DNA of 35,275 nt from Bacteroidales bacterium (GTDB lineage Bacteria; Bacteroidota; Bacteroidia; Bacteroidales; UBA12077). The position numbers and the translations under genes were made by a program. The notes beneath the pieces were generated by a model. The model did not search any database. It worked only from the letters and a program-made list of their open reading frames with translations, and was not told the DNA's origin. Every line of letters starts with the position of its first letter. Position 1 is the stretch's first letter. The stretch covers positions 1-35,275 of the forward strand of contig JANQHR010000013.1 of the NCBI GenBank assembly GCA_028282585.1. The letters run 5' to 3'. This document shows, piece after piece, positions 1-15,751 of this stretch.

Positions 1-95
1 GTATAAATCCAAAAGATTTTTATAAAAAAGTAGCTGTAAAACTTAATCTACAGCTTCTCAATTTTTATAGTTTACTTACTTCTGAAATTGCCTAA
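1..95 (+). CDS. 3' end of a gene entering the window (probable preceding cassette ORF)
   Basis: Frame open from position 3 (INPKDFYKKVAVKLNLQLLNFYSLLTSEIA) to TAA 93-95, immediately followed by an attC-like site. Confidence 0.5.
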   Translation, partial: INPKDFYKKVAVKLNLQLLNFYSLLTSEIA

Positions 96-100
96 ATAAA

Positions 101-162
101 CCGTCTGACAGCAAAAGTGCTGTAACTCCCAAAAGATAGGGTAAACAAGGGCCGTTAGGCAT
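101..162 (+). repeat. attC-like site 0 (short form)
   Basis: Degenerate left core GTCTGAC 103-109; right arm GTAAACAAGGGCC-GTTAGGC (core 154-160) resembles GTAAACAAAGACC-GTTATAA of site 4. Confidence 0.65.
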
Positions 163-196
163 AGTAAGCTCGCTGGCGCAACATTTAGACAATTTT

Positions 197-228
197 ATTG
201 CTAATATTTTAGGTTTACTTTATCTTTG
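197..228 (+). promoter_or_regulatory. Bacteroidota sigma-A promoter of the TA cassette
   Basis: ATTG 197-200, 20-nt spacer, TATCTTTG 221-228 (consensus TTTG-N19-21-TAnnTTTG). Confidence 0.6.
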
Positions 229-246
229 AAAAAAATAGGTTGAATT

Positions 247-492
247 ATGAATATAGCAGAATTGAAATTGAAATTTTTTAGGCAAATAGACGGTCTTGAC
301 AAAGACAAATTAGAAGAAGCTTATGGAGTTTTATTAAACTATATTAATAGCAAGGACGATTTAGATGAATGGAGCAACTTGACTGCTGAACAACAAAAAG
401 GAATTATTGATAGCATTGAGCAACTTGAGAATAATCAAGGAACTTCTCATAATGATGTAATAAAGAAATACAAGAATAAATACAATGCGTAG
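247..492 (+). CDS. Antitoxin (addiction module component-like)
   Basis: 81 aa, acidic, W..LT.EQ..GI..S..Q....G..H..V pattern; overlaps the downstream RelE/ParE gene by 8 bp. Confidence 0.8.
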   Translation: MNIAELKLKFFRQIDGLDKDKLEEAYGVLLNYINSKDDLDEWSNLTAEQQKGIIDSIEQLENNQGTSHNDVIKKYKNKYNA

Positions 493-784
493 AGAAATAA
501 TTTGGTCTCCTTTAGCTGAAGAAGACTTAGGAAATATTCTTGAATATCTTGCTGAAAATTGGAATCAAAAAGTAATAATTCGCTTACTCAATAAGATTGA
601 CCTTGTAACTAACCAGATAGCTAAAGTTCCAAATCAATATCCAACTATTAACAAAAAACTACAAGTGAGAAAGTGTGTAGTGACAAAACAGAATACTCTT
701 TTCTATCGTGAAATTGAAAAACAAATTGAAATATTAAGATTGTACGACACGAGACAAGATCCTAAAAAATTAAAATTTCTATAA
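485..784 (+). CDS. RelE/ParE family toxin
   Basis: 99 aa with IIWSPLAEEDL..I.EYL start and LFYR....IEILRLYDTRQDP end, typical of the RelE/ParE fold. Confidence 0.9.
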   Translation: MRREIIWSPLAEEDLGNILEYLAENWNQKVIIRLLNKIDLVTNQIAKVPNQYPTINKKLQVRKCVVTKQNTLFYREIEKQIEILRLYDTRQDPKKLKFL

Positions 785-791
785 GCTTACA

Positions 792-962
792 ATGCCTAAC
801 ATTGGGTGCTAATTCCATGCGGGGTTTTGTGGTTTGCTGGCTAAGTTTTATCTTAGTGTAGTTGTTCAGTGGTGGATAACAAAACAAGGCGGAACTAAGC
901 GCAGCGACCTCATGAGCCGCAGGTGATTAAGCTCGCACGAAACTTAACGCGGGTTATAAGGT
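792..962 (+). repeat. attC-like site 1 (long form)
   Basis: ATGCCTAAC 792-800 to GTTATAA 953-959; shares CATGCGGGG, TATCTTAGT, CAAGG..GGAACTAAGCG, CTC.TGAGC with sites 4 and/or 5. Confidence 0.85.
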
Positions 963-986
963 AATCAAACTTTTTAGAAAAACTTA

Positions 987-1415
987 ATGGACAAAATTAT
1001 TTATCAAAGTAAAAGATCATGGATAGGAATTTCTGTTTTAATTTCCTTCCTTTTTTTGACAGTTATTATATTACTTGTTGGGCATAATGAGAAAGCAAAA
1101 CTTTTTTTGATAGTTTATCCTTTTCTGACAGTTTTTTTATTAATACTTTATTTATTTCATCATAAATTACTATCAAGAGTTAAAATTTATAAAGATAGGA
1201 TAGAGTTTAAATTTATTCGATTACTCTTTTGGATAAAGACAGACAGTTTCGAATTAAATAAAATTCATCAAATTAATGTCACTGGGAAATTCTTCTGGAA
1301 AATTAGAGTAATAATAAAAGGGACTGGTGAAATGCAAATTAATCAGTATATCGAAATGTATGGTTTTAGACTGGTAGACTTAATAAAAAGCTTAAGGAAA
1401 TTAATGTTTTTGTAA
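987..1415 (+). CDS. Hypothetical membrane protein (2 TM plus small beta-rich domain), cassette
   Basis: 142-aa ORF with two N-terminal hydrophobic helices, bounded by attC-like sites. Confidence 0.7.
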   Translation: MDKIIYQSKRSWIGISVLISFLFLTVIILLVGHNEKAKLFLIVYPFLTVFLLILYLFHHKLLSRVKIYKDRIEFKFIRLLFWIKTDSFELNKIHQINVTGKFFWKIRVIIKGTGEMQINQYIEMYGFRLVDLIKSLRKLMFL

Positions 1416-1470
1416 GTTATCCAAGGAAAGGGAAAATAATTAATAGACTAGTAAAATAAAAAGTTTGACA

Positions 1471-1604
1471 ACCTATAACAGCGGTTCAGAAAAAATGCGA
1501 GGTGCAGTAGTATTCTGACAATTATTGTTATCTTTAGCTTTTGTTAACGGGGGATAATGAAACAAGGCGGCAAACCCGCACTTTTACTAACCGCGGTTGT
1601 GCGT
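1471..1604 (+). repeat. attC-like site 2
   Basis: ACCTATAAC-A-GCGGTT..AAAA.TGCG pairs with CGCA.TTTT..AACCGC-G-GTTGTGC (core 1596-1602). Confidence 0.85.
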
Positions 1605-1629
1605 AATTTTATTTTTACAATATTATTCT

Positions 1630-2145
1630 ATGAGAAAAATTGCAACAATAACTTTTTTATTTTTTTATTCCCTTATAGCTTTTGGACAGTCTGACAATTC
1701 AGAAGAATCAATTTTACAAGCTGAATTCTATGTTTCAACATCGCAAATCAAAGAGCTTGCTGATAGTTATGGAATTGGGATTGGTATAGATTATAAAATG
1801 AATTTATTTTTAGTTGGGACAGAAGTATTTGCTTTCACCAAAGCAATTGGTGGTGGTTACGAATCTGACCATTATTTAAATATTGACTTCTTAGGTGGAA
1901 TTCATAAAAAAATAAAAAAGTTCGACATTAGTGTAGCTACTGGTATTGGTTTGAGCTTTAGAGACGAAGGAGAATATCATCTTTTTTTACAAGAAGAAAG
2001 CTATACCAAATTAGCATTACCTGTGAGACTGAAAGCTAATTATTTACTAAGTGAAAAGTTTTTAATTGGCTTTGGGGCTTATTCAAGTTTGACATCAAAA
2101 GTTGATATTTATAGCTTTTTCGGTTCGATAGGTTATCAATTTTGA
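1630..2145 (+). CDS. Small outer-membrane beta-barrel protein, cassette
   Basis: Signal peptide from ATG 1630 (MRKIATITFLFFYSLIAFG), alternating beta strands, C-terminal SIGYQF; the TTG at 1597 lies within the attC-like core. Confidence 0.75.
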   Translation: MRKIATITFLFFYSLIAFGQSDNSEESILQAEFYVSTSQIKELADSYGIGIGIDYKMNLFLVGTEVFAFTKAIGGGYESDHYLNIDFLGGIHKKIKKFDISVATGIGLSFRDEGEYHLFLQEESYTKLALPVRLKANYLLSEKFLIGFGAYSSLTSKVDIYSFFGSIGYQF

Positions 2146-2154
2146 AATAAAACA

Positions 2155-2265
2155 ACGCACAACATCGGGTCAAACTAAATGCGGGTGTATGTTGTTTTGC
2201 TGACATAATAGTATATTCGCGTTGGTTCGGTTTCGGTTGACAATGAATCACGGGAATCCCACGCA
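2155..2265 (+). repeat. attC-like site 3, right arm interrupted
   Basis: ACGCACAAC 2155-2163, ATGCGGG, TATATTCGCGTTGGTTC (shared with site 7); homology stops after CCCACGCA at ~2265. Confidence 0.75.
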
Positions 2266-2690
2266 AGTCTCATAAATGTAAGCCTTTATGCCTAATGCTT
2301 TCAGGACATTTTTAACAGAGTTAACCAGAAAACATTTAGCAAAGTACTTATAAAAGCTGACAAGGCTGGAAATTTATTTTTAAAGGCTTGGAAAGCTTTT
2401 ATAAGTTAGTGAATTTTACGAGTTTATTCAAGCCTTTCTAGAAAGCGTTAAGGGACATCAGCGGATTGGCGTAAAAATCAAGGGAAGCGAGCGTGAAGAA
2501 AATTTTGGTGCCATCGGCACGATCAAAGTTTTTAGGGAGCAACCCGTAGATTTTCTTGCCAGGTCGGTGCAGTCCTAGCATTTTCTTTACTGCTTTCTTT
2601 TTGGCGATGCAAAAGAAAGCAGGCTTATTTAGTTGTCCAGCATTTCGGGATTAAGATTTATAATACAAATCTTTGTAATAGATATTGAAG
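2266..2690. mobile_element. Non-coding, highly structured insertion (MITE-like) within the attC-like site
   Basis: No credible ORF; long nested hairpin ~2451-2577 and 12-bp stem CTGCTTTCTTTT/AAAAGAAAGCAG 2590-2622; boundaries approximate. Confidence 0.4.
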
Positions 2691-2760
2691 GTAAACAAAA
2701 CGCTTGGGGCTCTCTTACCCTTGATTAAAGCAGTAGGTAAACTACCCCTAATCAACAGAA

Positions 2761-2937
2761 TGCCCAATACATAACGTTCACACGCCATACGGGTGCTTGG
2801 TGGTTTTGTAGCTTTATCATATCTTAGTAAAAGTTTAAACGATAGATAATTCAGCAAGGTGGGAACTAAGCGAAGCGTTCTCTTGAGCGTTAGCGAAAAA
2901 ATTCCGTACACTCAAGTAAACAAAGACCGTTATAAAC
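2761..2937 (+). repeat. attC-like site 4
   Basis: Colinear homology to site 1 (CCATACGGG, TATCTTAGT, CAAGGTGGGAACTAAGCGAAGCG, CTCTTGAGC); right core GTTATAA 2929-2935; left core degenerate (GCCCAAT). Confidence 0.8.
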
Positions 2938-2993
2938 AATTGCTGGAAATATAAGTACAAATATTAATTAATCAATAAATAATATATTTTAAA

Positions 2994-4055
2994 ATGAAAA
3001 AAGGAGTATTAATCTTTTTATTATTAGTCTCAACTTATGGATTAAAAGCACAAACACAAATTAATTCTTTGGGTTCATATGTTTGGAATTCTAACGATGA
3101 GCCCAAAACATTCAATTATAAGTTGCAATTATCTTTTGTGAATAGCAATAAAGGATTCCCTTCCTACGGAACTGTGCTTGCAGGCGGTGGTTATTCTACT
3201 AATCAAGATGGTGGAGCATTTCAATTATATTTTCCATATAATGATGAATATGGTGGAATTGCTCCAAAAATTAGATTAGGAAAATTCAATAATCAAGGTT
3301 GGAGTAACTGGGAAACATTTTATACATCAGCTAATGCAAATAAATCATCAATTGATTGGAATGTAAAAAAATTACATGTTTCTGATAGAATTGGAATTGG
3401 AACTAGTAATCCATTCTCTAAATTACATGTTATTAACGATAATTTTACAGTAACCAGTCAAAATGGTATCTTGGTTCAAGGGACTACAATTGGAAATGGT
3501 AATTACACGGCGGCAATTGGTTTTGGGTATGCAGGAAGTATGGATGCTGCTATTACAGGTATTCAAGAAGGATCAGATAATAATTCAATGGGTTTAGCTT
3601 TTTTCACTCATCCTTCCGCAGTATCAACCGATCCAAAGATTGAAGCAATGAGAATAACAAAAAATGGCAATGTTGGCATAGGAACTACTTCAACAGGAAC
3701 TCATAAACTTGCTGTTGACGGTACAATTGGAGCAAGAGAAATTATTGTTGAAACAGGAACATGGTCAGACTTTGTATTTGATGACAATTATAAATTGAAA
3801 GATTTAGAAGAAGTTGAAAATTTCATTGAAGAGAATAATCACTTACCTGATATTCCATCCGAAAAAGAAGTTTTAGAGAATGGAATTCAAGTTGGTGAAA
3901 TGAATGCAAAACTATTACAGAAGATTGAAGAATTGACTCTTTATATGATTGAGCAGAATAAGAAAACTGAAAAGCTAATCGAGAAAGTTGAAACACTTGA
4001 ATCTAAGAATAAAGAATTAGAAGAAAAAATTCTAAAATTGGAAACAACCAAATAA
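2994..4055 (+). CDS. Secreted tail-fibre-like protein with a C-terminal S74/intramolecular-chaperone-like coiled-coil region, cassette
   Basis: Signal peptide; IGIGT/GNVGIGT repeats; KLAVDGTIGAREI..WSDFVF..Y.L..LEEVENFI..N.HLPDIPS..LLQKIEELTLY module common in Bacteroidota. Confidence 0.75.
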   Translation: MKKGVLIFLLLVSTYGLKAQTQINSLGSYVWNSNDEPKTFNYKLQLSFVNSNKGFPSYGTVLAGGGYSTNQDGGAFQLYFPYNDEYGGIAPKIRLGKFNNQGWSNWETFYTSANANKSSIDWNVKKLHVSDRIGIGTSNPFSKLHVINDNFTVTSQNGILVQGTTIGNGNYTAAIGFGYAGSMDAAITGIQEGSDNNSMGLAFFTHPSAVSTDPKIEAMRITKNGNVGIGTTSTGTHKLAVDGTIGAREIIVETGTWSDFVFDDNYKLKDLEEVENFIEENNHLPDIPSEKEVLENGIQVGEMNAKLLQKIEELTLYMIEQNKKTEKLIEKVETLESKNKELEEKILKLETTK

Positions 4056-4061
4056 GTAACG

Positions 4062-4203
4062 GCTTACAACACTCGATCAAACTACATGCGGGGTTTTGCT
4101 AGCTTACAGACTAAATATTATCTTAGTAAAATTAAATAGCAGGCGACTGATAAGTAAGGCGTGGGAAGCCTTCAGGTAGCTTACCTGCGGGGAGTTAGTA
4201 AGC
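4062..4203 (+). repeat. attC-like site 5
   Basis: GCTTACAAC 4062-4070, CATGCGGGGTTTTG, TATCTTAGT, right core GTTAGTA 4194-4200. Confidence 0.8.
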
Positions 4204-4245
4204 ATTTTTATACTTGAACAAACTAAGAACCTTAATTTGATAAAT

Positions 4246-4755
4246 ATGAATAAAAAATTATTTTTAACTCTAGTTATCTTAATAATAATTAAACTAACAT
4301 ACTCCTTAAGCATTAAAGAAAGGAATGTTCTGAATGTCTTTATCAACTCTAATGATGAACTTTTGGTGAAAGGTGAACCTTTACATATTGACAGTCTTTG
4401 TGATCGTGTTAAAGTATTTATTTTAAATCCGGAAAATGACTATGTATATTCTGAAAAAAGAGAAAGTGAAATAAAACACCTGGGAATAGTTATGGTTTCT
4501 AAAGGGATAGTTTCTGTGCAATGTGAAAGAAATACTACATACGAGTTTTACATTAAAGTCCAGAATGAAATTGAGAAAGCTTATAACGAACTGAGAAATG
4601 AGTATTCTATTGAAAAATTTGGAAAAGAATATAAATTAATTGCAAAAAAATATAAAAAAGCTATTAACGAATACTTTCCTAAAATAATTTCTGAAGCTGA
4701 ACCAAATTATGCGTGGAAAAATGGAAAACTAGTTAAAAATTATTATACTTATTAA
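4246..4755 (+). CDS. Bacteroidota ExbD-like periplasmic domain protein, cassette
   Basis: ERNVLNVFINSNDELLV, IVSVQCERNTTYEFYIKVQNEI..AYNELRN and PKIISEAEP match Bacteroidota ExbD periplasmic domains; ATG 4246 preferred to TTG 4237. Confidence 0.75.
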   Translation: MNKKLFLTLVILIIIKLTYSLSIKERNVLNVFINSNDELLVKGEPLHIDSLCDRVKVFILNPENDYVYSEKRESEIKHLGIVMVSKGIVSVQCERNTTYEFYIKVQNEIEKAYNELRNEYSIEKFGKEYKLIAKKYKKAINEYFPKIISEAEPNYAWKNGKLVKNYYTY

Positions 4756-4761
4756 AAACGT

Positions 4762-4818
4762 GCACTAACAGCAAGTCATAAAGCAAGCCTTTAGATTAGT
4801 AATCTAAAGGTTATGCGT
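4762..4818 (+). repeat. attC-like site 6 (short form)
   Basis: GCACTAAC 4762-4769; perfect 11-bp inverted repeat 4788-4810; right core GTTATGC 4810-4816. Confidence 0.75.
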
Positions 4819-4908
4819 AATCGTGTTTTTAGGGCTACATTGTAAATGTTTATCCGAAATTTATAAAACAAATCTTATAAAAAAATTGTAATTTTATAGA
4901 TACAATAA

Positions 4909-4926
4909 ACAAATTTATAAATTTGT
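4909..4926. promoter_or_regulatory. 18-bp palindrome, candidate autoregulatory operator
   Basis: ACAAATTTA|TAAATTTGT 3 bp before the ATG of an HTH protein; contains TAAATTTG (-7-like). Confidence 0.4.
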
Positions 4927-4929
4927 GAC

Positions 4930-6057
4930 ATGAGTACTGAAGTAAATATAAATGCAAACATCTTAACTTGGGCAATAGCGCGAGCAGGGTATAAATTGCA
5001 TGAATTTACGACGAAAGTCCCTAAGGTACAGGACTGGATAGATGGTAAAAAGAAGCCAACTGTTAAGCAATTAGAAGCATTTTCTAGAAAAGTTTATTTA
5101 CCTTTTGGATACTTATTTCTTTCTGAACCACCAAAAGAAGATTTACCAATTCCTTTTTTCCGAACAATACAATCTGATGATGAAAAAGTTAGTATTAATG
5201 TTTATGATACTGTCTTAATCATGCAACAAAGACAAGAATGGTTACGAGAATATCTTCGTGATAATGGCTTTGAACCATTATCTTTCGTGGGGAAATTTAG
5301 CAACAGTCAAAATGTTAATGAAATAGTTGAAGATATAAGGAATACTTTGGGGTTAAAAGAAAATTGGGCAAGTAATTTTAAAACTTGGCGTGAAGCTTTA
5401 GAACATCTTACTGTTAAGATTGAAGATTCTGGAATTGTAATGGTTTTTAATGGTATAGTTGAAAACAACACTCATAGACCCATTAGTGTCGAAGAATGTC
5501 GTGGCTTTGTTATGACTGATGAATTGGCTCCGCTTATGTTTATAAATAATGCTGATGGAAAAGCAGCTCAAATGTTTACAATAGTTCATGAGTTAGCGCA
5601 TATTTGGACTGGAAATAGTGCAGGCTTTGATTTTAGGAAACTTGAACCGGCTAATGACCCTACTGAAATACTTTGTGATAAGGTTGCAGCTGAATTCTTA
5701 GTTCCAAAAACTGAATTTAGCAAAGTTTGGGATAGAAATCCACAAATTAGTTATGTAGCAAAATATTTTAAGGCCAGTGAGATAGTTATTGCAAGAAGAG
5801 CATTAGATACTAATAAAATAAGTAAAAGTGATTTTTATACTTTTTATGAAGATTATATAAGTCGTATTAATAAACAAAAAGCCAAGAAAAAACCAGGTGG
5901 AGACTTTTATGCAACTACAAAAAAAAGGCTAAGCATGACATTTGCAGCACACGTATATAATGCTGTAAAATCTGAAAAATTACTATATAGAGACGCATAT
6001 AAATTAACCAGTTTGAAAGGTGATACTTTTCAAACATTTTTCACTAAACACTTTTAA
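4930..6057 (+). CDS. XRE-HTH plus ImmA/IrrE family metallopeptidase (putative antitoxin)
   Basis: N-terminal HTH (VQDWIDGKKKPTVKQLEAFS), RGF, FTIVHELAHIW (HEXXH), E..CD.VAAEFLVP. Confidence 0.9.
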   Translation: MSTEVNINANILTWAIARAGYKLHEFTTKVPKVQDWIDGKKKPTVKQLEAFSRKVYLPFGYLFLSEPPKEDLPIPFFRTIQSDDEKVSINVYDTVLIMQQRQEWLREYLRDNGFEPLSFVGKFSNSQNVNEIVEDIRNTLGLKENWASNFKTWREALEHLTVKIEDSGIVMVFNGIVENNTHRPISVEECRGFVMTDELAPLMFINNADGKAAQMFTIVHELAHIWTGNSAGFDFRKLEPANDPTEILCDKVAAEFLVPKTEFSKVWDRNPQISYVAKYFKASEIVIARRALDTNKISKSDFYTFYEDYISRINKQKAKKKPGGDFYATTKKRLSMTFAAHVYNAVKSEKLLYRDAYKLTSLKGDTFQTFFTKHF

Positions 6058-6062
6058 TTTGT

Positions 6063-6563
6063 ATGAGTGTTTACGTTGTTGATACTAACTTTTTTATCCA
6101 AGCTCATAGAGCTCACTATCCTTTAGATGTAGTGTCTAGCTTTTGGAACAAGGTTAAAGAATTAGCTGAAAACAAATCTATCATCAGTATTGACAAGGTT
6201 AAACATGAAATATACAGAAATAATGACGCATTAAAGCAGTGGTGTGAAGAAAATCTACCAGATGATTTTTTCAAAGACACTTCAAACATAACAGATGCGT
6301 ATAGTCAAGTTGTTTCTTGGGCGACAGCAAGAAGTAATCATTTTTTACCTAATGCTATTAATGAATTCTTGGATTCTGAAGAAGCAGATGCATTCATTGT
6401 AGCTTATGTGTTATCTGAAAATCATGATAGAGTTGTGGTAACTCAAGAATTAAGTGAGCCAAAGAGTAAGAAGAAAATTAAAATTCCAGATGTTTGCATT
6501 GGCTTGAATGTAAATTATGTCAATGTAATGACTATGTTTAGAGAACTTAGTGAAACATTTTAA
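6063..6563 (+). CDS. DUF4411 family PIN-like nuclease (putative toxin)
   Basis: YVVDTNFFIQA, ADAFIVAY, VVTQE, KIKIPDVC motifs; 5 bp after the IrrE gene. Confidence 0.85.
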   Translation: MSVYVVDTNFFIQAHRAHYPLDVVSSFWNKVKELAENKSIISIDKVKHEIYRNNDALKQWCEENLPDDFFKDTSNITDAYSQVVSWATARSNHFLPNAINEFLDSEEADAFIVAYVLSENHDRVVVTQELSEPKSKKKIKIPDVCIGLNVNYVNVMTMFRELSETF

Positions 6564-6574
6564 AAAACACGTCA

Positions 6575-6704
6575 ACGCATAACACGCGTTGCTCAAACAC
6601 CATTTAGGTTTGCAGTCAAAGTATTATATTCGCGTTGGTTCTGTCCGAGTTATTATTAACCGGATCGAAACTCCCGCACACTAACTAATGCAGGACCGTT
6701 ACTA
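6575..6704 (+). repeat. attC-like site 7
   Basis: ACGCATAAC 6575-6583, TATATTCGCGTTGGTTC, CCCGCAC, GACC-GTTACTA (core 6698-6704). Confidence 0.8.
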
Positions 6705-6722
6705 ACTATAAAACAATAAACA

Positions 6723-7409
6723 ATGATTAAATTTAGGATTTTTTTCCTGGCATTAGGAATATTCACCTCATGTTCAATCCGGTTTACTTCAGGTGAAAGT
6801 GTTTTAAATGGCAAAGTCAAATCTTGTTTATTGTTAAAATACGAGGTCAATAAAATTTCCGGTAAAGTTGAAAAAGGAAAATTGCTGGATTATGGACACC
6901 AAAAATGGAGCTTTGACAAAAAAGGAAACTATACTATCTATGAATACCTCGATTCTGAACAGAATATATTGGAAAAAACAATCCCTAAATACATTAACGG
7001 AAAAATATTAGAAGAAATAGTTTACAATAGGCAAAGTGAGATTGAATCTCGATCGAAATATACATATATTTCCAAAAGTGAAATTGAATTTGAAAGGTTA
7101 AATAAACATGGATTAATCCTTTTTAAGGGAACAATATTTAAAAACAAAAATAAGGTTATTCATCAAGAATTTACAGCATATCGAAATAACGAAATCAAAG
7201 AAAGAATGAATTGCTTTTACAATTACGACCATAATGATAATCTAATTATGTTTAAGCAAACAGAGAGTAATGGTGAAATAATCTCATTAAAAAAGTATCT
7301 GTACCTTGAATTTGATGATAAAAAGAATTGGACCAAAAGACTAGTCACTTATCCTGAATACTCTGATAAACCTAGACATATAGAAATTCGTAAAATTGAA
7401 TATTACTAG
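6723..7409 (+). CDS. Lipoprotein with YD-repeat-like beta hairpins, cassette
   Basis: Lipobox FTSC; FDKKGN, YNYDHNDN, EFDDKKNWTKR and terminal RKIEYY. Confidence 0.75.
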   Translation: MIKFRIFFLALGIFTSCSIRFTSGESVLNGKVKSCLLLKYEVNKISGKVEKGKLLDYGHQKWSFDKKGNYTIYEYLDSEQNILEKTIPKYINGKILEEIVYNRQSEIESRSKYTYISKSEIEFERLNKHGLILFKGTIFKNKNKVIHQEFTAYRNNEIKERMNCFYNYDHNDNLIMFKQTESNGEIISLKKYLYLEFDDKKNWTKRLVTYPEYSDKPRHIEIRKIEYY

Positions 7410-7414
7410 TGTAC

Positions 7415-7457
7415 TGCTGCTAACACGTGGTGTCCCGCTAGTGCCGGCATGTTGTCA
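7415..7457 (+). repeat. Degenerate terminal attC-like site 8
   Basis: TGCTGCTAAC 7415-7424 just after the stop codon; possible right core GTTGTCA 7451-7457. Confidence 0.45.
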
Positions 7458-7496: not shown

Positions 7497-7522
7497 TGCC
7501 TGTCATAAAAACAGGCATTTTT
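7497..7522 (+). terminator. Intrinsic terminator at the end of the array
   Basis: TGCCTGT-cataaaa-ACAGGCA followed by a T run. Confidence 0.6.
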
Positions 7523-7681
7523 TATAATATATCTGCTAAACATTCGTTAATTTCAATTATAGGATTTTAACACTAATTCTATTTTACCTGTCCGCCGGTT
7601 TATCTGCCAAAGGCATGACAAGCGGGTTAACCTAACTATCTTAAGGAACATAATATTTTTTGAAAAGGCTTGTTTGTTTAA

Positions 7682-8852: not shown

Positions 8853-10415
8853 CTAAGTATTATTTACTTTAAAGAAGGACACCAAATCTTTTAGTTGATT
8901 TGCTTGACTAGTCATTTCTTCAGCACTAGTTGCTAACTCTTCGCTTGCAGCAGCATTTTGTTGCGTAACTCCATTCAATTGCTGTATGGAGTTATTAATA
9001 GCATCAACCCCATTATTTTGCTCTTGACTTGATGAAGAAATTTCTTGAATTAGTTTTGCTGTTTTTACAACTTCAGGTAATATATTGTCCATGTTTGTTC
9101 CTGCCGTCACTGCCAATTTATGGCTATTTTTAGTAAGTCCTATAATCTCTTCTGCCGCCAATTTACTTCTCTCTGCAAGTTTGCGCACTTCGGCAGCTAC
9201 AACTGCAAAACCTTTACCATACTCTCCTGCCCTCGCAGATTCAACAGCAGCGTTAAGCGCCAATATATTAGTTTGAAAAGAAATATCATTGATAATACTA
9301 ATTTTATCGGATATTTGTTTATTTGCATTTACAGATTCTTGCGACTGATTGCTAACTTCTTGAATACCTTCTCTAGCAACCAAAGCAATTTTCTCAGTTT
9401 CTGACGAGTTTTCAGCATTTTTCTGGATATTTAAGGCCATTTCTTCCATAGTTGAAGAAACTTCTTCTACCGATGACGCTTGTTCATTAGCACTTTGTGA
9501 GATATTTTGAGATGTATTACTAACTTGTTGGCTAGCTGAAGCAATACTGCTTATTCCAATATGTATACTTTCAATAATATTAGTCAATTTAGCACTCATA
9601 TTTATTAAAGATTTCGCAAGACGACCAACATCATCTCTAGATTCTACAAATAATTTAAATGTTAAATCTCCCTTAGTTATTTTTCTTGCTAATTGTTGTA
9701 TCGTTGTTAAATCCTTTGTAGTTCTTCCAACAATAATTATTACAGGTACAATAATTGTAATAAAACCCATTACCCCTATTGTTATTCCCTTATTTATAAA
9801 ATTATTTGCCAACTCCTCCTGAATAGTACTGCCACTATAAACATATAATAAAGATTTAAATGATAATAAAAATAGAATAATTACACCTACACTTGCTATT
9901 GTTGTACACATAAAAAGTTTTGTTTTAAGTGTAAACACTTTTGCTGTATCTGTTAAAGGAACTGATGACGTCCAAGCTTCAAGGAAGAAAATCATTTTTA
10001 AGAAAAAGGGAAGAGTAAAAATAAAAATTATCGGAATTCCAAATGACCAACTTAATAAGTATGTACTACGATTAATATCTAAGCCAATAAGCCCAGTGTT
10101 CGGTCCTACTAAACAGTATATTGTTATTCCAATAATATATAAAGAAATAATATTTAAAACCAATCTTTGAACTTCTGCATAATCCTTATTAAGTGATGCT
10201 TTTTTAATTGCTTGAAGCTTTTTACTTAATAGCATTACCATTAGAGTTATATATAATGGAACATAAATAAGTAAACCCGGATTAGAAAGTATTTTTAGAA
10301 TTTGCTCAGAATTAAATAATTCATTAAACCAAATAATAATAATCCAAAATACTGGTGGTAAAACAAAACCTCCAATAAACCACAATATAATTTTTTGTCT
10401 AACCTCCTTTTTCAT
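8853..10415 (-). CDS. Methyl-accepting chemotaxis protein (multi-TM sensor, HAMP, signalling domain)
   Basis: [37 protein letters not shown] signature; HAMP segment GDLT...SRDDVGRLA. Confidence 0.95.
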
Positions 10416-11710: not shown

Positions 11711-11849
11711 AATATGAACTCTTCACTTTTACAAACATTTTGGTAAGACAAGCTTACTAAAAAGCTTGTAATCTTCTTGTCCCGTTAAACATCAGGAGCT
11801 TTTGGGAAGGATGAGCACTGACCTGTGCCTTTGTCATATTGACTCACAA

Positions 11850-11968
11850 AACATGCGGAGTTTTTGACGTTTGATCATAAAATACTATATTCGTATTGGT
11901 TCTATTCGGGTGATGATGAAACAGTGCGTGCCTCCCAATAGCTATCCGACTTGCACTAAAGTTAAAGT
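11850..11968 (+). repeat. Isolated degenerate copy of the attC-like repeat
   Basis: CATGCGGAGTTTTTG...TATATTCGTATTGGTTCT...GGTGATGATGAAACA aligns with sites 3 and 7. Confidence 0.65.
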
Positions 11969-12005
11969 AGTACCGATATCTGAAAATAAATCAATTAAAC
12001 TTCAT

Positions 12006-15525: not shown

Positions 15526-15582
15526 CCTGCCTTGCTGGCAGGCAGGGTTTTTACTATATTTGTTTTTCCCGATAGCTATCGG
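15526..15582. repeat. Two short REP-like palindromes flanking a -7 promoter element
   Basis: CCTGCCT-tgctggc-AGGCAGG 15526-15546; TATATTTG 15555-15562; CCGATAGCTATCGG 15569-15582. Confidence 0.55.
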
Positions 15583-15751
15583 TTGTCAACACTGAAACGG
15601 GTTGGTCTCCCACCTCGCTTCATAACCGAAGACCTTTGAAATAGCGGACATTAGGTCGTACAAAAATAGGCTGAATGTTTTGAGATCAATTAGTTGTATG
15701 TGGGGAAAAATTATAACGTAAACGGTTTGTTTAATTTTAAAGACTTTTTTT

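Follow-up and report, generated by a model that had tools for sequence, protein, structure and literature searches.

A probable integron-type gene-capture array in a Bacteroidales bacterium, apparently of the rAID kind

Positions 1-7457 of the window, the 35,275-nucleotide stretch that we analysed and that makes up the entire contig C170 of a Bacteroidales bacterium, read most probably (we would say at about 78%), judging from sequence comparison, as the recombinase-distal end of an integron-type array for gene capture on the chromosome. The integron-like array that the initial annotation had pointed to is confirmed as a real feature, of a kind of system already known (rAID-1), and appears to belong to the "rAID" arrays described from gut Bacteroidales. 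Counted against this reading are the spread of the arrays of this genome over at least 12 contigs, with the recombinase on C169, outside the window, and the degenerate state of several window sites (TTT at 2285, spacer lost at 1596, the atypical 4764-4818, no terminal site). The assembly is 98% complete, comprises 173 contigs and has arrays at contig ends.

Layout of the array

All 12 of the motifs that the annotation had quoted lie where it placed them, and its view that homologous sites separate the cassettes is borne out by a covariance model for attC-like sites (R1), which fits six sites of the array at 68.5-101 bits. Its count of seven complete cassettes has to be raised to eight, because its 'site 3' (2146-2937) is in fact two sites around an ORF-less cassette. 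The features are as follows.

1-92, no strand: terminal part of a dispersed repeat (an IS, probably) abutting the contig edge; interrupts the first site
93-153, + strand: 3' half of an attC-like site cut by the repeat; nhmmer match 99-160
154-800, + strand: cassette 1, from G|TT at 154|155 to AAC at 798-800; 9/9 end complementarity
790-962, + strand: attC-like site 1; R1 87.9 bits
954-1479, + strand: cassette 2; 5/9 end matches, one indel
1469-1605, + strand: attC-like site 2; R1 96.7 bits; without the 5-nt 3' spacer (at 1596)
1597-2163, + strand: cassette 3; 9/9 ends
2153-2294, + strand: attC-like site 3a; R1 87 bits; R' core degenerate, TTT for GTT at 2285-2287
2286-2775, + strand: cassette 4 ('X'), ORF-less, 490 bp; 92-94% identity among copies
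2765-2938, + strand: attC-like site 3b, long variant with an insertion of ~35 nt; R1 101 bits
2930-4070, + strand: cassette 5; ORF 2994-4055, 353 aa, no family
4060-4203, + strand: attC-like site 4; R1 82.9 bits
4195-4769, + strand: cassette 6; ORF 4246-4755, 169 aa, no family; 6/6 ends
4764-4818, + strand: short atypical site; R'' and 5' arm, unrelated perfect 10-bp hairpin, G|TT
4811-6583, + strand: cassette 7, two genes; 9/9 ends
6573-6707, + strand: attC-like site 6; R1 68.5 bits
6699-7424, + strand: cassette 8, the last; no terminal site
7497-7523, + strand: terminator-like hairpin (7497-7517) and T-run, array end
11827-11984, + strand: solitary degenerate attC-like site outside the array; R1 41.1 bits, E 5.7e-6

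The repeat at the contig edge (bases 1-92/99) has 12 further matches of at least 98% identity, nearly all of them lying no more than 250 nt from the end of a contig, and the flanks of these copies diverge past ...GAAATTGCC. For bases 93-157, full sites on C169 and C55 have 3' halves that are 95-97% identical. A cassette holds one or two co-oriented genes, or none, starting at the TT of GTTR and ending at the YAAC core. Cassette 1 is a toxin-antitoxin pair, with ORF 247-492 (no family) and ORF 485-784 (ParE toxin, PF05016, 36 bits), and cassette 2 encodes a predicted membrane protein of 142 aa without a family (ORF 987-1415). ORF 1630-2145 of cassette 3 bears a weak likeness to outer-membrane beta-barrels (PF13568, E 0.002, below cut-off), while cassette 7 carries an IrrE/ImmA-type M78 peptidase (ORF 4930-6057, PF06114, 49.6 bits) and a DUF4411 gene (ORF 6063-6563, PF14367, 164 bits). 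Besides its window copy, the X cassette is present in the genome in four full and two partial copies; it matched no Rfam family, was absent from the five relatives searched and gave RNA fold z-scores of -3.9 and -4.5. The 3' third of cassette 5 (~3660-3970) matches many places in the genus and many other cassettes. Cassette 8, with an ORF of 228 aa (6723-7409) that has no family above cut-off, is 92% identical to G046:C59 from ~6706 to ~7413. The poor ends remarked upon for this last cassette stand in so far as only an R''-like remnant (7416-7424) closes it ahead of the terminator-like hairpin, beyond which lie ordinary chromosomal genes.

Site family and cassette boundaries

Read along the top strand, a site opens with YAAC and a single unpaired A; a 6-bp helix and a bulged C follow, then a further pair of 6-bp helices on either side of a small internal loop, and the tip is variable. 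Behind the tip come the return arm, the 5-nt spacer (GGACC) and finally GTTR. Of 131 anchored sites, 128 have the unpaired A, 124 the bulged C and 72 the GGACC; with the 1 x 5 spacing, 86% of pairs in these sites are Watson-Crick, the median for other spacings being 25%. In an alignment of 23 sites, 80.3% of cells pair in this structure; shuffling lowers the figure to 66.4%, none of 500 shuffles reaching the observed value, and sliding the partner lowers it to 33-46%. The covariation score of the structure is 0.343 versus 0.05-0.12. The three 6-bp helices stay paired through compensatory changes, five of the six pairs of helix 2 varying on both sides. The sites had been described as atypical for their length: they are indeed 119-182 nt long in the genus (median 142), but those of Flavobacterium measure ~124 nt and those of G065 67 nt, so that it is the 1 x 5-nt spacer, and not a length spanning 67-182 nt across genomes, that is the atypical feature. 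As for folding of single-stranded DNA, ten folds of five R1-matching sites (four in the window, one on C64) gave z-scores from +0.5 to -2.2, and typical R1-matching sites do not clearly surpass shuffles. The DNA fold of site 2 (1469-1605) recovers the expected stem; that of site 3a (2153-2294) is no better than shuffles. The short site 4764-4818, which gave no match in the covariance-model scan with R1, is the only one whose DNA fold is much better than shuffles, with z-scores of -4.8 and -4.0.

The claim that the 5' end of each cassette is complementary to its own 3' core holds well beyond the window. Scored against the reverse-complemented stretch that precedes the AAC of the same cassette, the nine variable bases past GTT match at 6.41 positions on average in 123 adjacent-site pairs of five genomes, and at seven or more in 85 of them, versus a mean of 3.40 for all other pairings (247 of 15006 with seven or more); R'' and R' within one site share 3.33 matches on average. 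Seven or more matches are likewise reached by 14 of 16 cassettes of the distant genome L108, against 3 of 273 other pairings, and by 9 of 22 cassettes of L113, against 1 of 507. A cruder test confined to the window, which paired any GTT 9-mer with a complementary copy no more than 3 kb away, did not set the array apart (7 there versus 3-7 per 7.5 kb elsewhere). The dominant ORF lies on the site strand in 75 of 127 inter-site segments and on the opposite strand in one.

Recombination at G|TT, which had been proposed for these cassettes, is supported by the points where homology begins. (G)|TTAT is precisely where it starts in the five full-length X copies, which are 93% identical and have unrelated sequence upstream of that point, and cassette 1 matches a cassette of G046:C53 at 94% identity from G|TTAGGCAT to AAC. 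Homology of cassette copies also stops at R'' (AAC), a break that the classical model of exchange at G|TT alone does not foresee, and the breakpoints claimed for G|TT are to that extent only part of the picture. Body identity is thus 93% for X versus 56-58% for the downstream site, 94% versus ~50% for cassette 1 and 90% versus 50% for G008|62-C85, these downstream sites being no more alike than unrelated sites (baseline 61-72%). Paralogous cassettes of G008 keep the downstream and not the upstream site, one example having 99% identity in the body, 96% downstream and 64% upstream.

Recombinase and relatives

A distinct tyrosine recombinase had been foreseen outside the window, and a matching protein of 376 aa, the single copy of its family in the genome, is encoded on C169. 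The gene is co-oriented with a cassette array and is followed, as the annotation had suggested checking, by an attI-like site and then by cassettes; the attI-like stretch is conserved in G000, G008 and G024, where it ends in ...AACTAG|TTA. The protein combines an IntI-like sequence and a C-terminal SPxD tail with an extra N-terminal domain of ~95 aa, and it is devoid of the IntI-specific insertion (22 residues versus 65 in VchIntIA). Alignment with 12 canonical IntI places gaps of 27 and 14 aa at the insertion, and the catalytic-domain match is uninterrupted. Its family clusters with IntI, apart from the Xer proteins of the same genome, with a support of 100/100.

G008, a complete single-contig relative, encodes a 73% identical homologue with an array of ~130 kb directly after it, in which 68 of 68 full-length sites are co-oriented and downstream of the recombinase. 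The same layout occurs in G003:C34, G023:C72 and G015:C5. The recombinase accompanies the repeat family in every recombinase-bearing stretch that we fetched, sites lying downstream of the gene and nearly all in its orientation: all 14 R1 matches point the same way, a first scanner counted 21 forward and 1 reverse (1.8 in shuffles) and a looser one 41 forward and 8 reverse. This architecture is found throughout the class Bacteroidia, Flavobacterium included.

Mechanism, rival explanations and known systems

An integron-type mechanism is the most likely one for the array. A tyrosine recombinase, presumably of the C169 type, would bind the R and L boxes of the folded single strand and exchange strands at G|TT; cassettes would leave as circles and re-enter at the attI-like site just downstream of the recombinase gene. 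Folded single-stranded DNA as substrate and the choice of the recombining strand are likewise what we infer from sequence, and the distal, partly degenerate part of the array may still be active. Recombination in integrons reportedly requires the insertion that is missing here (Messier and Roy 2001, via PMC9668308), which counts against an integron mechanism.

The same cassette system might instead recombine double-stranded DNA between paired cores in the manner of Xer/dif, with both AAC and GTT as crossover points and the palindrome merely two inverted binding sites. Unremarkable fold energies and homology blocks that stop at both R' and R'' would agree with this, as would the recombinase, which can be aligned with XerA over its whole length, scores narrowly above the cut-off of the XerA/integron-integrase model (221 versus 220 bits) and has no insertion; it is the IntI insertion that contacts the extrahelical bases of folded attC. 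We nevertheless regard duplex exchange as unlikely, since compensatory changes keep the three helices paired, the strict 1 x 5 asymmetry of the spacer and a bulged C suit a folded strand and not a duplex, and the G008 paralogues retain the downstream site as the folded-strand model predicts.

It is much harder to argue for an array that duplication and homologous recombination built up without any site-specific system of its own, its palindromes being static repeats between genes, such as REP-like elements, RNA processing signals or terminators. RNA-level structure would also produce covariation, some hairpins are terminator-like, and plain duplication is seen in X as well as in a cassette family of 366 bp; but cassette-specific end complementarity has no RNA or terminator rationale, homology begins exactly at G|TT beside unrelated flanks, the attI-like junction is conserved, and sites follow the recombinase in its orientation wherever it was fetched. 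Least probable of all is a classical integron remnant (CALIN) whose canonical IntI was lost or unassembled, the C169 recombinase being unrelated to the array. The fragmented assembly with arrays at contig ends leaves room for it, and canonical IntI is no rarity in the phylum at large, with 113 of 401 genomes over cut-off; yet only one of these genomes belongs to the same class, the genome has no TIGR02249 match over cut-off, its best being the C169 recombinase itself (214 versus 265 bits), the single-contig G008 array begins right after an insertion-less recombinase, and R1 matched nothing in five genomes with canonical IntI.

The closest published system to this integron-type array is rAID-1 (Ross 2019, 10.1101/471110), recombinase-associated arrays with integron-like intergenic repeats that were called "reminiscent of integrons" and whose mechanism was still open in a 2025 follow-up (PMC12247911). 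Membership is defined there by >44% identity to BF9343_RS08045. The two share the order and a presence in more than half of genomes (226 of 423 Bacteroidales genomes in that paper; 170 of 301 genomes of the class matched by the recombinase profile here); G038, a genome of that order, encodes a protein recorded under the name Balneicella halophila. They differ in habitat, rAID-1 being known from the gut whereas the sequencing runs found to hold the present stretch carry a coral metagenome label only, and in composition, with no GC skew here (31.6% in the array, 31.9% in the genome). The cargo, among the commonest 25 of 94 families, is toxin-antitoxin pairs, TPR proteins, acetyltransferases and unknowns, and not recognised immunity genes as in rAID-1, and the array of G008 spans ~130 kb, as against the 'up to 31 genes' reported. 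The passages of the rAID-1 papers considered here describe intergenic motifs but not folded sites, G|TT boundaries or attI, and we did not find the anatomy given here in print.

With classical sedentary chromosomal integrons (Cury et al. 2016, PMC4889954) the array shares RYYYAAC / GTTRRRY-type cores with crossover at G|TT, a cassette start complementary to its own 3' core, imperfect-palindrome sites with an extra base on the L'' side, co-oriented genes in large arrays, toxin-antitoxin cassettes and an attI adjoining the recombinase gene. Unlike classical IntI, the recombinase falls below the TIGR02249 cut-off, lacks the insertion, bears the ~95-aa N-terminal extension and is co-oriented with the cassettes. 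The central spacer is uneven, with arms of 1 and 5 nt, whereas those of canonical attC are roughly equal, at 5-6 nt. Treponema denticola and the 'inverted integrase' group also have an integrase upstream of and co-oriented with the cassettes, as here, but their integrases keep the IntI additional domain that is absent from this family. Archaeal integrons (Ghaly et al. 2022, PMC9668308) resemble it as integron-type arrays outside the usual hosts with attI directly downstream of the integrase; their IntI, too, are reported to keep the domain. The rarity of integrons in the phylum, as the annotation had it, is true of canonical ones, reported as nearly absent from Bacteroidetes (PMC9024848), but does not extend to rAID-1.

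It is worth mentioning that the solitary site at 11827-11984 lies directly upstream of a metallo-beta-lactamase-fold gene, and that matches to the array contig in a second sample start or stop at 153, 810, 6590 and 6705.

The array and its chromosomal setting

The window is the whole of contig C170 in a genome of 4.89 Mb (173 contigs, 98% complete, 32% GC), and its positions 1-7457 carry eight co-oriented cassettes with related imperfect palindromes between them. All of the 12 motifs quoted in the initial annotation lie where it had placed them, and its overall reading was that of a real feature, correctly interpreted. The cassette array it described stands, but its seven complete cassettes and one partial one become eight, and the long palindrome taken for a single third site is in fact two sites flanking an ORF-less cassette of 490 bp, hereafter X. 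The array terminus has no full site and shows instead a terminator-like hairpin, after which ordinary chromosomal genes resume. With 31.6% GC against 31.9% for the genome, the array is not skewed in composition, and the value lies under the threshold (41% or less) of the recombinase-associated arrays of Bacteroidales named rAID-1 (Ross et al. 2019, bioRxiv 10.1101/471110).

Features of the window, with the copies of X on other contigs of the same genome
1-92: end of a multi-copy dispersed repeat, probably an insertion sequence, found at 12 other places in the genome, nearly all of them contig ends
2286-2775: cassette X; other copies at C85:454-937, C169:1365-1857 and 1-118, C36:41837-42326, C55:7931-8423 and C138:1-250
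4764-4818: short atypical site
8853-10415, minus strand: gene of a methyl-accepting chemotaxis protein (MCPsignal, HAMP), right after the array
11827-11984: solitary degenerate attC-like site, 4 kb past the array and just upstream of a gene of the metallo-beta-lactamase fold
15533-15639: weak nhmmer match

The repeat at 1-92 is inserted in the variable tip of one attC-like site, which it bisects, and it breaks the assembly at this point. The flanks of its copies are AT-rich and diverge after ...GAAATTGCC; the body of the element ending at 1-92 was not located. We considered the repeat as an element targeting attC sites and rejected this idea, since its other copies stand in unrelated AT-rich flanks. 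Beyond the array, the solitary site at 11827-11984 may be a trace of older, now fixed cassettes. Within the array, several sites of the window are degenerate, so this distal part of it may be decaying. Genes of methyl-accepting chemotaxis proteins are, to our knowledge, uncommon in this phylum. SusD-type genes are present in the genome, and among 14 control genomes they found matches in Bacteroides only.

Cassette ends and the proposed point of exchange

Each site is bounded by an AAC core, which closes one cassette, and a GTT core, which opens the next. For 123 pairs of adjacent sites from five genomes, the nine variable bases after GTT were compared with the reverse complement of the bases preceding the AAC of the same cassette. 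Own pairings reached a mean of 6.41 matches out of nine, with at least seven in 85 of the 123, against a mean of 3.40 and at least seven in 247 of 15006 for other pairings, and the two cores of one site gave a mean of 3.33. The complementarity of cassette ends proposed in the initial annotation is therefore well borne out over five genomes; a chance test on 9-mers from the window alone was uninformative on this matter. Pairing of this kind is what one classically expects where cassettes circularise by a crossover at G|TT.

The homology breakpoints lie at G|TT, as had also been proposed. Among five copies of X the identity is 92-94% and starts exactly at (G)|TTAT with unrelated DNA upstream, and cassette 1 is 94% identical to a cassette of the compared genome G046, the match starting at G|TTAGGCAT. 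Two more pairs of cassettes from different genomes are alike over their entire body, from first to last base, and in a second sample of the study whose assembled contigs served for the run comparison, matches to the window begin or end at 153, 810, 6590 and 6705. Orientation is equally uniform: out of 127 inter-site segments (median 883 bp), the dominant ORF lies on the site strand in 75 and on the other strand in one, the other 51 having no ORF that covers half of the segment.

The downstream ends of cassettes add a complication. For X, cassette 1 and one other pair, the bodies are 90-94% alike and the downstream sites 50-58%, that is, at or below the baseline of 61-72% for unrelated sites, a misfit with the classical model. 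On longer time scales, exchange thus appears to occur at the AAC core too, which could be accounted for by occasional events on the opposite strand or by recombination of duplex DNA. Among the paralogous cassettes of G008, a compared genome that is a single contig, the downstream site is by contrast kept and the upstream site is not. In the run comparison, the short sides of contig joints (20-31 nt at 90% likeness) match other repeat copies and therefore say nothing on circles or excision; the joint 2769>4077 is the arrangement found on contig C85, and gaps in the cover of the window in sequencing runs X2 and X3 do not show that the sequence is absent there.

The genome has seven copies of cassette X, five full and two partial, at 92-95% identity, and its contig depth in sequencing run X1 is 83-129 compared with about 14 for its neighbours. 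Its RNA folds beat shuffles on both strands (z of -3.9 and -4.5); it has no Rfam family, and no copy was found in five relatives. That X might be an ORF-less group II intron, of the attC-targeting kind, was dropped after a search that gave no group II match on either strand.

The site family and a candidate recombinase

An iterated nhmmer search (E up to 0.1) returned 36 places over 14 contigs of the genome, of which 23 were aligned and a structure of four helices proposed on the alignment. Under this structure 80.3% of the cells are paired, against 66.4% in shuffles (0 of 500 as high) and 33-46% with slid partners; covariation scores 0.343, and sliding the partners lowers this to 0.05-0.12. 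Both sides have changed in five of the six pairs of helix 2. A covariance model built from the sites (R1), the approach put forward in the initial annotation, recovers the family both in the genome (35 sites) and in relatives (151 sites in 27 fetched stretches, 149 of them kept after removal of a partial match and of a weak one on the opposite strand). AAC stands at the expected place in 145 of the 149 sites and GTT in 133. Among the 131 sites with both anchors, AAC is followed by one unpaired A (128/131), a 6-bp helix (86% Watson-Crick), a bulged C (124/131) and a second 6-bp helix (75% Watson-Crick), while a 5-nt spacer, GGACC in 72 sites, precedes GTT on the return arm; out of 63 spacings tried on these sites, the 1 x 5 spacing is far ahead of the 62 others. 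In canonical attC sites the two arms have central spacers of about equal length, and with spacers of 1 nt and 5 nt the present family departs from the R-box/L-box geometry of integrons.

The structural support for typical sites comes from covariation, not from fold energy. Folded as DNA on either strand, five typical R1-matching sites mostly came out within 1-2 standard deviations of shuffles, and among the sites folded only the atypical short one at 4764-4818 does clearly better than shuffles as DNA. Rfam gave no match at gathering thresholds over the whole window and chance-level matches only at E up to 10 over 2100-3000. No R1 site was found in the five genomes that carry a canonical IntI (0/5).

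The initial annotation had also supposed a distinct tyrosine recombinase encoded outside the window, and a good candidate is the 376-aa protein of contig C169, the sole copy of its family in the genome. No protein of the genome matched the integron-integrase model TIGR02249 above its cut-off; the C169 protein is the best match, with 214 bits for a cut-off of 265 (split matches of 117 and 101 bits), and for the XerA/integron integrase model of NCBIfam it scores 221 bits for a cut-off of 220. In Pfam it consists of SAM_4 and an uninterrupted catalytic domain. When set against the Vibrio IntI structure (PDB 2a3v), 22 of its residues (271-292) face 65 residues of the chain (177-241), and in an alignment with 12 canonical IntI, taken from other classes of the same phylum, their insertion of 27 + 14 aa is absent from all 22 family members (22/22). 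The IntI-specific additional domain near patch III that characterises integron integrases, whose presence the initial annotation had left to be checked, is accordingly lacking. A C-terminal SPxD tail is common to the family and IntI and absent from the Xer proteins of the genome itself. Our tree joins the family and IntI against four Xer-like proteins of the genome (support 100/100) and puts IntI beside three family members (93/92), with an outgroup that is small and from one genome only, long-branch warnings and a branching order that is not settled. As a query against the genome contig collection, the recombinase returned distant proteins only and no close relative.

Past the stop codon of this gene, the same strand of C169 holds about 130 nt, X as first cassette (starting GTTATGCAT and ending ATGCATAAC), a full site, a 343-aa gene and X again at the contig end. 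Downstream of the stop codon, a stretch of about 60 nt is conserved up to ...AACTAG|TTA, followed by divergence, in three of four genomes aligned (the present one, G008 and G024), whereas the post-stop stretch of G023 does not align; we read the conserved stretch as a putative attI-like junction. That the C169 recombinase and the window contig belong to one system is a link that we infer.

Arrays in relatives, known systems and cargo

In G008, 68 full-length sites span about 130 kb downstream of a recombinase 73% identical to that of C169, and every one of them is on the strand of that gene; the same layout recurs in G003:C34, G023:C72 and G015:C5. Within the genus, 36 of 37 genomes have R1 sites; across the order, with few candidates scored per genome, at least 27 of 121 do. 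Homologues within the order are 36-47% identical to the C169 protein, and at E 1e-70 the recombinase profile has matches in 170 of the 301 high-quality genomes searched in the class. This count includes the unpublished G622 and is an upper limit for the family, given that some matches have no N-terminal part. In many draft genomes the gene is 100-250 nt away from a contig end that its 3' end faces, a pattern that repeats starting there would produce; apparently draft assemblies break at array starts, and arrays are probably under-represented in them. Canonical integron integrases (full-length TIGR02249, 300-497 bits) were found in 113 of 401 genomes of the phylum, only one of them in the class of the window.

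The same organisation reaches distant genomes. In 13 stretches downstream of their recombinases, 14 of 14 R1 matches are co-oriented with the recombinase, and a simple, strict hairpin scanner gave 21 sites forward and one reverse against 1.8 in shuffles. This scanner misses the partly degenerate sites of the window itself, and a looser version took its place in the scans that followed. Arrays of sites of about 124 nt with the same grammar are present in three genomes for whose recombinases the source gives the name Flavobacterium, and in the distant stretch L108 at least seven own-end matches are found in 14 of 16 cassettes as against 3 of 273 other pairings. The complete genome G065, from the order of the window, shows some 20 sites of 67 nt (G065:C1:526000-545200, minus strand; stretch L113), again with the core and spacer grammar; the recombinase ORF upstream of them is a longer one (up to 518 codons from stop to stop). 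It follows from the sites of about 124 nt and of 67 nt that site length varies between lineages and that the spacer asymmetry is kept. Stretch L113 also contains a repeated small cassette with the ends GTTGTGCCC and GGGCACAAC.

Two published systems come close to this organisation. With integrons the window shares cassettes set between imperfect palindromes with AAC/GTT cores, as well as a G|TT crossover at which the 5' end of a cassette pairs with its own 3' core. With rAID-1 arrays it shares repetitive conserved intergenic sequences and at least two co-directional genes downstream of a recombinase, C169 having X and the 343-aa gene and the window its eight cassettes. The rAID-1 definition of Ross et al. 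[quoted passage not shown] That study reports rAID-1 in 226 of 423 Bacteroidales genomes, with low or skewed GC (41% or less) and cargo dominated by orphan immunity genes (Ross et al. 2019), and in 2025 the biogenesis of rAID arrays was for the same group still "an area of active research" (PMC12247911). On the integron side, the IntegronFinder 2.0 report gives Bacteroidetes In0 elements only, plus one complete integron in Salinibacter (PMC9024848), and a 2024 preprint places Bacteroidota among the clades earlier found without integrons (bioRxiv 10.1101/2024.07.02.601686); standard surveys need the IntI-specific domain and see Bacteroidetes as almost integron-free. Smyshlyaev et al. (PMC8138268) distinguish a subgroup of "integron-like" recombinases and call the insertion "not fully conserved" there. 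In the open-access literature searched, we found no publication on the site structure or folded attC-like sites, on G|TT boundaries, on an attI or on an insertion-less integron integrase in Bacteroidia.

Our best reading of these sequences is an integron-type recombination of folded sites, in which the insertion-less, IntI-related C169 recombinase would act in the style of integrons. Somewhat below even odds (about 0.45) is what we would give to the wider proposal that rAID-type arrays, that of the window included, are a second, and ancient, lineage of true integrons spanning the class Bacteroidia, in which arrays were confirmed for Bacteroidales and for Flavobacterium. Its integrase would do without the "indispensable" IntI insertion when it recombines folded attC at G|TT, relying instead on the 1 x 5-nt spacer geometry and an additional N-terminal domain; canonical IntI may be an offshoot of this family that acquired the insertion, and an occasional AAC-core exchange, perhaps of the top strand, would uncouple genes from sites. 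The anatomy described here joins the integron and rAID fields through the pairing of cassette ends, the G|TT breakpoints, the covarying hairpin with its 1 x 5 spacer and bulged base, the attI-like junction and a recombinase that groups with IntI and yet has no insertion. The acquisition of genes by rAID arrays, a mechanism still open, is thereby tied to integrons and leads to testable predictions, and the need for the IntI insertion in attC-type recombination may be put in question. By implication, marine and soil Bacteroidia would harbour large pools of mobile cassettes that current integron finders do not see, with as much as about 130 kb in a single genome.

The rAID literature treats the arrays as stores of immunity genes. 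Cassettes of the window encode a ParE toxin and its small partner, an IrrE/ImmA-type peptidase together with a DUF4411 protein, and several secreted or membrane proteins of no family. For 98 cassette ORFs (30 from the present genome and 68 from G008), the leading entries among the 25 commonest of 94 families are IS3 transposase parts, TPR, toxin-antitoxin, GNAT, acyltransferases, SIR2_2 and RidA, with no immunity family among these 25; on the same 25 families the cargo resembles that of chromosomal integrons more than an immunity-gene store. The 3' third of the ORF at 2994-4055 of the window (about 3660-3970), for which no family was found, recurs at 70-90% identity in many other cassettes (contigs C138, C44, C166, C169 and C36 and other genomes of the genus) and appears to be a C-terminal module common to proteins that otherwise differ.

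The array of G008 (contig C1) also holds a 1358-bp element with IS3-type transposase parts (HTH, rve), whose 99-100% identical copies each sit 20 nt past G|TT in four different cassettes (segments 18, 44, 47 and 56), which suggests an insertion targeted to the cassette start. Ten cassettes of about 366 bp form a family, 70-100% alike, that includes identical copies at separate positions of this array and one tandem pair of identical 722-bp cassettes; these copies suggest that cassettes were recently duplicated or re-inserted inside one array.
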